This document shows positions 1,396-3,991 of a DNA stretch of 64,000 bases, piece by piece. The notes below the pieces were generated by a model. That model did no database searches and was not told where the DNA came from. It saw only the letters and a list, made by a program, of their open reading frames with translations. The position numbers and the translations under genes were made by a program. The stretch is taken from the NCBI RefSeq assembly GCF_054482595.1, contig NZ_CM137008.1. One strand, given 5' to 3'. How positions within the stretch are numbered: the stretch's first letter is position 1; each line of letters starts with the position of its first letter.

Positions 1396-1656
1396 ACCTT
1401 GGGTATCACCCCTATGATAGACAGGGAAAGGCTGGACTCTCTCATCGATTGCTATTTAGATGAGAAATTTTATCTTACTAAATCTCGTAAAAAACACGTT
1501 TTACTTAAAGAAATAAATAACACACCATATTGCTATATTGTTATTTAATATTTATAGCATGAATATAATTTTTAAATGAGTTACACAACCGAGGGCTAAA
1601 AATCGCTTCGGTTGTGATCATCATCACATAAATAACCTTCATAAACCTTGCTCAAA

Positions 1657-1705
1657 ACCGCTCAACCGCAAAACTGACCGCTTACGTCCCTAAAATAACC
1701 ACTCA
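1657..1705 (+). promoter_or_regulatory. Three direct repeats of ACC(G/A)CT(C/T)A (ACCGCTCA 1657-1664, ACCGCTTA 1677-1684, ACCACTCA 1698-1705), putative BtsR/YehT binding site in the btsT promoter
   Basis: Repeats read directly, with 12-nt and 13-nt spacers, about 140-180 bp upstream of btsT. The motif matches the published YehT direct-repeat consensus as I recall it. Confidence 0.55.
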
Positions 1706-1840
1706 GTTATTTACCTTACTTTACGCGCGCGTAACTCTGGCAGCATCACTGCAGGATAGCGGTCAATTTACCTCCTCAAACGCAACGCAAACCTAGAACG
1801 GCTTCGGCCAACTATTAATCAATACATGCCAGGTTTTACT

Positions 1841-3991
1841 ATGGATACGAAAAAACTATTCAAGCACATACCCTGGGTGATTCTCGGAATCATCGGTGCA
1901 TTCTGCCTCGCGGTAGTTGCATTACGTCGGGGGGAGCACGTCAGTGCCCTGTGGATCGTGGTCGCCTCTGTGTCGGTGTATCTGGTGGCGTATCGCTACT
2001 ACAGTCTGTACATCGCCCAGAAGGTGATGAAACTCGACCCTACGCGCGCGACGCCTGCGGTTATTAACAACGACGGTCTGAACTACGTTCCGACCAACCG
2101 TTACGTGTTGTTTGGTCACCACTTCGCCGCTATCGCCGGTGCCGGTCCGCTGGTCGGTCCGGTTCTCGCCGCACAGATGGGCTACCTGCCTGGCACGCTG
2201 TGGCTGCTGGCGGGGGTAGTACTGGCCGGTGCGGTTCAGGACTTTATGGTGCTGTTTATCTCCTCTCGCCGTAACGGCGCATCTCTCGGTGAGATGATCA
2301 AAGAAGAGATGGGACCAGTACCGGGGACTATCGCGCTGTTTGGCTGTTTCTTAATCATGATCATCATCCTCGCCGTTCTGGCGCTGATTGTGGTTAAAGC
2401 CCTGGCCGAAAGTCCGTGGGGTGTCTTCACCGTTTGCTCAACCGTACCGATTGCGCTGTTTATGGGTATCTACATGCGCTTTATCCGTCCGGGGCGTGTG
2501 GGTGAAGTCTCTGTTATTGGTATCGTGCTGCTGGTTGCCTCTATCTACTTCGGTGGCGTGATTGCTCACGATCCGTACTGGGGTCCGGCACTGACCTTTA
2601 AAGACACCACCATTACCTTCGCGCTGATTGGCTATGCGTTTGTTTCCGCACTGCTGCCGGTGTGGCTGATCCTCGCACCGCGCGACTATCTGGCAACCTT
2701 CCTGAAAATCGGCGTTATCGTCGGCCTGGCGCTGGGTATCGTGGTGCTGAACCCGGAACTGAAAATGCCAGCGATGACCCAGTACATTGACGGTACTGGC
2801 CCGCTGTGGAAAGGCGCTCTGTTCCCGTTCCTGTTCATCACCATCGCCTGTGGTGCGGTATCTGGCTTCCACGCGCTGATCTCTTCCGGTACGACGCCGA
2901 AACTGCTGGCTAACGAAACCGACGCGCGTTTCATTGGCTACGGCGCAATGCTGATGGAGTCCTTCGTGGCGATTATGGCGCTGGTTGCTGCGTCCATCAT
3001 CGAACCGGGTCTTTACTTCGCGATGAACACCCCACCTGCTGGCCTTGGCATCACCATGCCTAACCTGCATGAAATGGGTGGCGAGAATGCGCCGATCATC
3101 ATGGCGCAGCTGAAAGACGTTACCGCACACGCGGCGGCGACCGTCAGCTCCTGGGGCTTCGTGATTTCGCCAGAGCAGATCCTGCAAACCGCGAAAGACA
3201 TTGGAGAGCCTTCTGTCCTGAACCGTGCAGGTGGTGCGCCGACGCTGGCGGTAGGTATCGCTCATGTGTTCCACAAAGTGCTGCCGATGGCTGACATGGG
3301 CTTCTGGTATCACTTCGGTATTCTGTTCGAAGCCCTGTTCATCCTGACCGCGCTGGATGCTGGTACCCGTTCTGGCCGCTTTATGCTGCAAGACCTGCTG
3401 GGTAACTTCATCCCGTTCCTGAAAAAAACCGACTCTCTGGTTGCCGGTATCATCGGTACTGCGGGCTGTGTGGGTCTGTGGGGCTACCTGCTGTATCAGG
3501 GCGTGGTCGATCCGCTGGGCGGCGTTAAGAGCTTGTGGCCGCTGTTCGGTATCTCCAACCAGATGCTGGCAGCCGTGGCGCTGGTACTGGGCACCGTTGT
3601 GCTGATTAAGATGAAGCGCACCCAATACATCTGGGTAACTGTTGTTCCGGCCGTATGGCTGCTTATCTGCACCACCTGGGCGCTGGGCCTGAAACTGTTC
3701 AGCACCAACCCGCAGATGGAAGGCTTCTTCTACATGGCAAGCCAGTACAAAGAGAAGATTGCTAACGGTACTGACCTGACGGCGCAGCAGATTGCCAACA
3801 TGAACCACATCGTTGTGAACAACTACACCAACGCGGGCCTGAGTATTCTGTTCCTGATTGTGGTGTACAGCATCATCTTCTACGGTTTCAAAACCTGGCT
3901 TGCGGTGCGTAACAGCGACAAACGTACTGACAAAGAAACACCGTACGTTCCAATCCCGGAAGGCGGCGTGAAGATCTCTTCGCACCACTAA
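1841..3991 (+). CDS. btsT: Pyruvate/H+ symporter BtsT (CstA family; formerly YjiY), 716 aa
   Basis: ORF-track ORF 1826-3991 gives a CstA-family polytopic membrane protein. The start is taken at the ATG at 1841 (MDTKKLFKHIPWVILG...), which matches K-12 length; the ATG at 1826 lacks an SD. Confidence 0.9.
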   Translation: MDTKKLFKHIPWVILGIIGAFCLAVVALRRGEHVSALWIVVASVSVYLVAYRYYSLYIAQKVMKLDPTRATPAVINNDGLNYVPTNRYVLFGHHFAAIAGAGPLVGPVLAAQMGYLPGTLWLLAGVVLAGAVQDFMVLFISSRRNGASLGEMIKEEMGPVPGTIALFGCFLIMIIILAVLALIVVKALAESPWGVFTVCSTVPIALFMGIYMRFIRPGRVGEVSVIGIVLLVASIYFGGVIAHDPYWGPALTFKDTTITFALIGYAFVSALLPVWLILAPRDYLATFLKIGVIVGLALGIVVLNPELKMPAMTQYIDGTGPLWKGALFPFLFITIACGAVSGFHALISSGTTPKLLANETDARFIGYGAMLMESFVAIMALVAASIIEPGLYFAMNTPPAGLGITMPNLHEMGGENAPIIMAQLKDVTAHAAATVSSWGFVISPEQILQTAKDIGEPSVLNRAGGAPTLAVGIAHVFHKVLPMADMGFWYHFGILFEALFILTALDAGTRSGRFMLQDLLGNFIPFLKKTDSLVAGIIGTAGCVGLWGYLLYQGVVDPLGGVKSLWPLFGISNQMLAAVALVLGTVVLIKMKRTQYIWVTVVPAVWLLICTTWALGLKLFSTNPQMEGFFYMASQYKEKIANGTDLTAQQIANMNHIVVNNYTNAGLSILFLIVVYSIIFYGFKTWLAVRNSDKRTDKETPYVPIPEGGVKISSHH

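Follow-up and report, generated by a model that had tools for sequence, protein, structure and literature searches.

The BtsR operator upstream of btsT carries a conserved third in-phase repeat, a candidate auxiliary half-site

LytTR regulators recognize imperfect direct repeats, each 8-13 bp long (one source gives 9-11 nt), with 11-13 bp between them (PMC4847170, PMC4064291). Binding of one of them, YpdB, is sequential and cooperative, with monomers taking first a high-affinity and then a low-affinity site (PMC4847170). BtsR, also named YehT, has btsT (yjiY) as its single target gene (PMC5936718). In K-12 and Salmonella, BtsR binding has been found in vitro, and BtsS/BtsR are needed for btsT induction (PMC5936718 among sources). 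The dependence of btsT/yjiY on cAMP-CRP is published (PMC7730263; PMC5431176), as is its control by CsrA (PMC7730263, PMC5936718 and PMC5431176, cited for CRP and CsrA together). A citing paper describes the YehT site as a direct repeat with 13 bp between its halves (PMC4222967). Elsewhere, a 'known motif' of BtsR was scanned in eight species, in a text that gives no repeat count (PMC5552118). The K-12 oligonucleotide that the Jung laboratory designated 'yjiY YehT bs' is CCTTTGCCGCTCAACCGCAAAACTGACCGCTTACATCCCTAAAATAACCACTCAGTTA (PMC4847170). K-12 is the strain behind the published work. Kraxenberger et al. 2012 (J Bacteriol 194:4272) reportedly described three motifs, M1-M3, of which M2 and M3 were essential, and replacement of M1, the upstream motif, is said to have had little effect in K-12. 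The motif string ACC[G/A]CT[C/T]A reportedly stood in the abstract of that paper.

The window, which is the whole stretch of 64,000 nucleotides that was analysed, is E. coli DNA; over 1400-1900 it matches strain Combat11I9 at 100% identity. The gene downstream of the repeats is annotated as the pyruvate/proton symporter BtsT in this identical DNA (RefSeq annotation). An earlier note, made from the sequence alone, had reported three copies of ACC(G/A)CT(C/T)A at 1657-1705, about two helical turns apart and upstream of btsT. All of this holds: the coordinates are exact, a scan of the window returned all three copies as exact matches on the + strand upstream of the gene, the start-to-start distances are 20 bp from copy 1 to copy 2 and 21 bp from copy 2 to copy 3, and the gene's identity follows from the annotated E. 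coli DNA (Table 1). These distances leave spacers of 12 and 13 bp, the latter at 1685-1697. They correspond to a phasing of about 1.9-2.0 helical turns, which places the three copies on roughly the same face of the helix. We considered a tandem duplication and rejected it, since the two spacers are unrelated in sequence and the repeat is confined to the 8-bp cores.

Table 1. Features of the btsT upstream region, in positions of the window
Feature	Sequence	Position	Strand	Remarks
CRP-type site	TGTGATCATCATCACA	1613-1628		Perfect TGTGA-N6-TCACA match; starts 44 bp before copy 1
Copy 1 (upstream, 'third' repeat)	ACCGCTCA	1657-1664	+	Exact match; candidate auxiliary BtsR half-site
Copy 2	ACCGCTTA	1677-1684	+	Exact match; upstream member of the published YehT/BtsR direct repeat
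Copy 3	ACCACTCA	1698-1705	+	Exact match; promoter-proximal member of the published repeat
Candidate -35 region	TTTACC..ACTTTACG	1710-1725	+	Conserved block; conserved columns downstream of copy 3
Extended -10-like element (TGnCAnnAT)	TGgCAGCAT	1738-1746	+	Candidate from conservation
btsT (yjiY) CDS, pyruvate/H+ symporter		1841-3991	+	Annotated ATG at 1841

Only copies 2 and 3 are separated by 13 bp, so they fit the published YehT repeat, and they are the published, experimentally defined BtsR pair. The array is therefore the LytTR-class operator of btsT that is already known, not a new element. It lies directly upstream of a btsT orthologue and has the ACC[G/A]CT[C/T]A direct repeat of a BtsR operator, including its 13-bp spacer. 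The statement in the earlier note that the published site is a pair of such repeats is consistent with the 13-bp-spaced repeat described in the citing paper (PMC4222967), which copies 2 and 3 match exactly. All three positions are also contained in the K-12 'yjiY YehT bs' oligonucleotide (PMC4847170). Copies 2 and 3 have identical sequences in K-12 and in the window and are 13 bp apart in both. Copy 1 of K-12 is GCCGCTCA, a 7/8 match, both in the oligonucleotide and in the comparison with MG1655. Near-identity between the window and MG1655 starts exactly at 1658 (CCGCTCA...) and runs to the ATG. Upstream of 1658, the two are diverged alleles with roughly 50% identity in a gapless alignment, and both retain a perfect TGTGA-N6-TCACA site at the same distance. 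The allele breakpoint, 1657/1658, thus falls inside copy 1, leaving base 1657 on the strain-variable side.

With its 8-bp cores and its 12- and 13-bp spacers, the array has the form of a LytTR site. It departs from the rule of exactly two repeats per operator, in that three conserved in-phase copies were present in all 80 of the btsT promoters that we examined. These came from about 30 genera, among them Escherichia, Salmonella, Citrobacter, Klebsiella, Raoultella, Kluyvera, Enterobacter, Kosakonia, Leclercia, Lelliottia, Pluralibacter, Trabulsiella, Pantoea, Erwinia, Mixta, Rahnella and Leminorella. Redundancy reduction left 55 representatives sharing <85% identity. Every promoter with enough upstream sequence had a common layout, consisting of a CRP site followed by copies 1, 2 and 3. 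Measured from start to start, the CRP site and copy 1 were 44 bp apart in 71/80 promoters and copies 1 and 2 were 20 bp apart in 75/80, while copies 2 and 3 were 20, 21 or 22 bp apart in 53, 26 and 1 of the 80, respectively. The distance between copies 1 and 2 is, thus, more constant than that between the two published copies. The 13-bp spacer of the published repeat is a minority state (26/80, Escherichia included), most genera having 12 bp, Salmonella and Klebsiella among them.

Conservation was concentrated in the sites. Among the 55 representatives, information content and mean pairwise identity were 1.42 bits per column and 0.78 for the CRP site, 1.62 and 0.84 for copy 1, 1.79 and 0.92 for copy 2, and 1.63 and 0.85 for copy 3. 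The corresponding values were 0.31 bits per column and 0.34 for the 28-bp linker between the CRP site and copy 1, 0.42 and 0.38 for spacer 1, and 0.64 and 0.47 for spacer 2. Copy 2 is, thus, the most conserved of the three, and copy 1 is on a par with copy 3. The motif was perfect in 39/55 representatives at copy 1, 48/55 at copy 2 and 37/55 at copy 3, and copy 1 matched at 7/8 positions or more in 54/55. The flanks have come near to mutational saturation, so common descent cannot account for how well copy 1 is conserved. In addition, all three copies vary at the same positions, with R at 4, Y at 7 and A/G at 8; this agreement of copy 1 with the two proven repeats points to the same protein. 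Taken together, the comparative data indicate that copy 1 is ancestral to Enterobacterales, has been kept by selection and is part of the operator, most likely as a third genuine BtsR half-site. The earlier note's suggestion of a possible additional site at the third copy, thus, gains support: in the 55 non-redundant promoters, copies 1 and 3 are equally well conserved.

A weak fourth in-phase slot was observed 19-21 bp upstream of copy 1 (about 1636-1645 in the window). It matched at 6/8 positions or more in 33% of the 55 representatives, compared with a background of 5.9%, being perfect in Citrobacter sp. R56 and 6/8 in K-12 (GTCACTTA); in this window, the fourth copy is absent. A poor copy 1 was not offset by a better fourth copy (Spearman 0.09, p = 0.51). 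At the other end of the array, an extra ACCGCTSA-like copy was found 20 bp downstream of copy 3 in an Enterobacteriaceae MAG (L072), a Pantoea (L074) and an Erwinia (L078), and 27 bp downstream in a Rahnella (L081). These extra downstream copies overlap the position of the putative E. coli -35 region.

The first alternative is that copies 2 and 3 alone are functional and that copy 1 is a dispensable look-alike, either left over from an earlier register or acting as a weak decoy; we consider this unlikely. Its appeal lies in the published site, a repeat pair with a 13-bp spacer (PMC4222967), in the family norm of two repeats (PMC4847170, PMC4064291) and in the fact that BtsSR still induces btsT in K-12 (PMC5431176 among sources). 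The imperfect GCCGCTCA is found not only in K-12 but in no fewer than 2,683 complete E. coli genomes. Replacement of M1 in K-12 is also said to have had little effect. A neutral relic would, however, be expected to decay as the spacers and the linker have done, which are at 0.34-0.47 identity, whereas copy 1 is at 0.84. A dispensable copy would also hardly keep a distance to copy 2 (20 bp in 75/80 promoters) that is steadier than that between copies 2 and 3.

A second alternative, which we regard as less probable still, is that copy 1 is conserved by a different factor, namely YpdB/PyrR, LeuO or an architectural need of the CRP-BtsR complex. The expression of btsT is influenced by YpdA/YpdB, LeuO and CRP (PMC5936718), and copy 1 keeps a fixed distance of 44 bp to the CRP-site start. 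Nevertheless, the consensus and the variable positions of copy 1 are those of the two proven BtsR repeats, as would hardly be expected of a site for another protein. LeuO sites are AT-rich, unlike the GC-rich core of the repeat. As for YpdB, its motif is GGCATTTCAT, and YpdB-D53E did not bind a PyjiY fragment holding all three K-12 copies, which served as the no-binding reference DNA (PMC4847170).

Finally, a chance cluster of a short degenerate word can be dismissed for practical purposes: the 8-mer pattern is indeed short, and ACCRCTYA has 13 matches on both strands of the whole 64-kb window (6.0 expected from shuffles), but at this background rate only about 2e-7 same-strand triples spaced 19-22 bp are expected per window, and the arrangement recurs in 80/80 orthologous promoters. 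Besides the btsT array, no further in-phase pair was found in the 64 kb, even at 7/8 matches, and hence no second operator elsewhere in the window.

We, thus, favour a three-repeat BtsR operator, in which copy 1 would be a third BtsR half-site that aids cooperative occupancy alongside CRP. We judge this reading likely, given the sequence, geometry and conservation of the array and the identity of its gene, all of which were observed directly. In the mechanism that we propose, the BtsS kinase would sense external pyruvate and BtsR would thereby be activated. Direct ACCRCTYA repeats that recur every 20-21 bp along the same helical face, immediately ahead of a weak promoter core, would be filled by activated BtsR; for copies 2 and 3, such occupancy is published. 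We infer that BtsR also occupies copy 1, either as a three-protomer array or in two overlapping dimer registers (1+2 and 2+3). At its stereospecific upstream distance, cAMP-CRP would assist BtsR, and the two would activate the weak core promoter, switching on the gene of the pyruvate importer. Copy 1 probably adds a cooperative contact, which could set the occupancy, the threshold or the shape of the expression pulse.

As in cAMP-CRP co-activated promoters, a TGTGA-N6-TCACA site lies upstream at a conserved position. A scan of 1400-1900 for the sigma-70 consensus and for terminators found nothing; the lack of a consensus promoter would fit an activator-dependent promoter. Conservation provided the candidate core elements listed in Table 1, and 48/55 representatives had TGnCAnn[A/C]T at 38-40 bp downstream of the copy 3 start. 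Reading the promoter core off the TGnCAnnAT element would place the start site near 1753. With +1 at this position, the centres of the sites would be at about -51.5, -72.5 and -92.5 for the repeats and -132.5 for CRP.

Between the end of copy 3 and the btsT ATG lie 135 bp; a longer btsT ORF results from an in-frame ATG at 1826. At 1800-1809, about 30 nt ahead of the ATG at 1841, the putative 5' UTR contains GGCTTCGGCC, a short GC stem capped by a UUCG loop. This hairpin was also seen in the Escherichia, Citrobacter and Leminorella loci that we inspected, and a search of 1400-2000 against Rfam, at E-values up to 1, gave zero matches. A role in mRNA stability or in the published control by CsrA is conceivable. 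In some genomes, a repeat-like insertion of about 123 bp directly follows the hairpin in the btsT 5' UTR. The carriers are E. albertii, an Escherichia cryptic-clade genome and Citrobacter portucalensis, as well as some E. coli strains. In the first three, it spans about -155 to -30 relative to the btsT ATG. With the insertion, the three repeats come to lie at about -305. The inserted sequence may resemble an ERIC/IRU intergenic repeat.

Upstream of the operator, between tsr and btsT, the window contains a small hypothetical gene (1006-1548). Its product has 180 aa in Combat11I9 and 129 aa here, a shortening due to a TGG-to-TGA nonsense change that creates a stop codon at 1393-1395. The segment 1400-1900 takes in the 3' end of this gene together with the diverged upstream allele. 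Coverage of this segment reached at least 80% in only 362 of the 5,383 matching genomes.

We assessed the variation of copy 1 within the species in 5,426 complete E. coli genomes, using allele-specific searches with 43-44-mers and a census of coverage. The perfect ACCGCTCA occurred in two alleles: the window-type allele, which includes O157:H7, in 363 genomes, and a second allele in 2,054 genomes by exact match (2,251 in all). In the three genomes sampled for the second allele, the upstream neighbour of btsT was an hpa monooxygenase reductase gene, an amino acid deaminase gene or an oxidoreductase gene. GCCGCTCA was found in a tsr-adjacent allele of the K-12 type (2,021 exact matches) and in a second tsr-adjacent type (662 exact matches). 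By exact match, at least 2,417 complete E. coli genomes, thus, have A at position 1657 and with it the perfect repeat; the total may reach about 2,600. At least 2,683 exact matches, K-12 among them, have G at this position, which is about half. The G variant at position 1 of copy 1 also occurs in E. albertii, and in one sampled E. coli genome copy 1 was GCCACTCA. The presence of the G variant in about half of E. coli shows that Escherichia tolerates a weakened copy 1. On this evidence, the perfect triple is the ancestral and widespread state and the K-12 copy 1 is a derived, weakened form.

A more far-reaching version of our reading is that the native BtsR operator is a three-site, sometimes four-site, in-phase array ancestral to Enterobacterales, that the two-repeat picture arose from the mismatched K-12 promoter and that A or G at 1657 tunes lineages. 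We put this forward tentatively, holding it somewhat short of an even chance. If true, BtsR, and perhaps LytTR regulators generally, would work as assemblies of at least three protomers or in alternative dimer registers. The base at 1657 would then tune the threshold or the pulse of pyruvate-induced btsT expression between E. coli lineages, which would set O157-type and hpa-adjacent alleles apart from those of the K-12 type.

The BtsR operator of btsT was already known, and its recognition from the sequence in the earlier note was correct. What the present analysis adds is comparative: the upstream repeat, omitted from the two-repeat description, is as well conserved as the published pair across about 30 genera, and the laboratory strain K-12 carries a weakened version of it. 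Were the third site functional, models in which a dimer occupies a pair, as well as the sequential 'AB-BA' model, would need a third protomer or alternative registers, and natural E. coli lineages would differ in how sensitively the pyruvate-scavenging system is switched on. In that case, BtsSR-btsT biosensors built on the K-12 promoter might also gain from a restored perfect site.

Among the described systems, the operator of YpdB (PyrR) at yhjX, with its A and B sites and its 'AB-BA' mechanism (Behr et al. 2016, PMC4847170), offers a close parallel. YpdB is a paralogous E. coli LytTR regulator with a single transporter target gene and direct repeats 21 bp apart from start to start. It differs in its motif, GGCATTTCAT, in its 11-bp spacer and in the two sites that have been characterised. 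A degenerate third copy, GTCATTCAT, can also be made out by eye in the yhjX promoter oligonucleotide (PMC4847170), where it precedes the two GGCATTTCAT sites by about 20 bp. A weak upstream third repeat may, thus, be common to the YpdB and BtsR systems. The sites of AgrA, VirR, PlnC/PlnD, FsrA and ComE, the classical LytTR operators, resemble the BtsR operator in being imperfect direct repeats, 8-13 bp long with about 12 bp between them, upstream of activator-dependent promoters. They are, however, described as pairs and have an unrelated core, whereas the BtsR operator has three copies conserved across a bacterial order. A LytTR regulator with three sites at one promoter is known in AlgR, which has RB1, RB2 and RB3 at algD of Pseudomonas aeruginosa (PMC4064291). 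These are three distinct sites whose sequences have been mapped far upstream of algD (a region about 332 bp away), and the review does not present them as a contiguous array with a phasing of about 20 bp (PMC4064291).

The closest relative of the array remains the K-12 yjiY site of Kraxenberger et al. (2012), which has the same locus, gene, copies 2 and 3, 13-bp spacer and CRP distance. Copy 1 is GCCGCTCA there and the perfect ACCGCTCA in the window. The window further differs from K-12 in its diverged allele upstream of 1658 and in the extra small gene between tsr and btsT. The published K-12 description counts two repeats, whereas the comparative data presented here argue for three.
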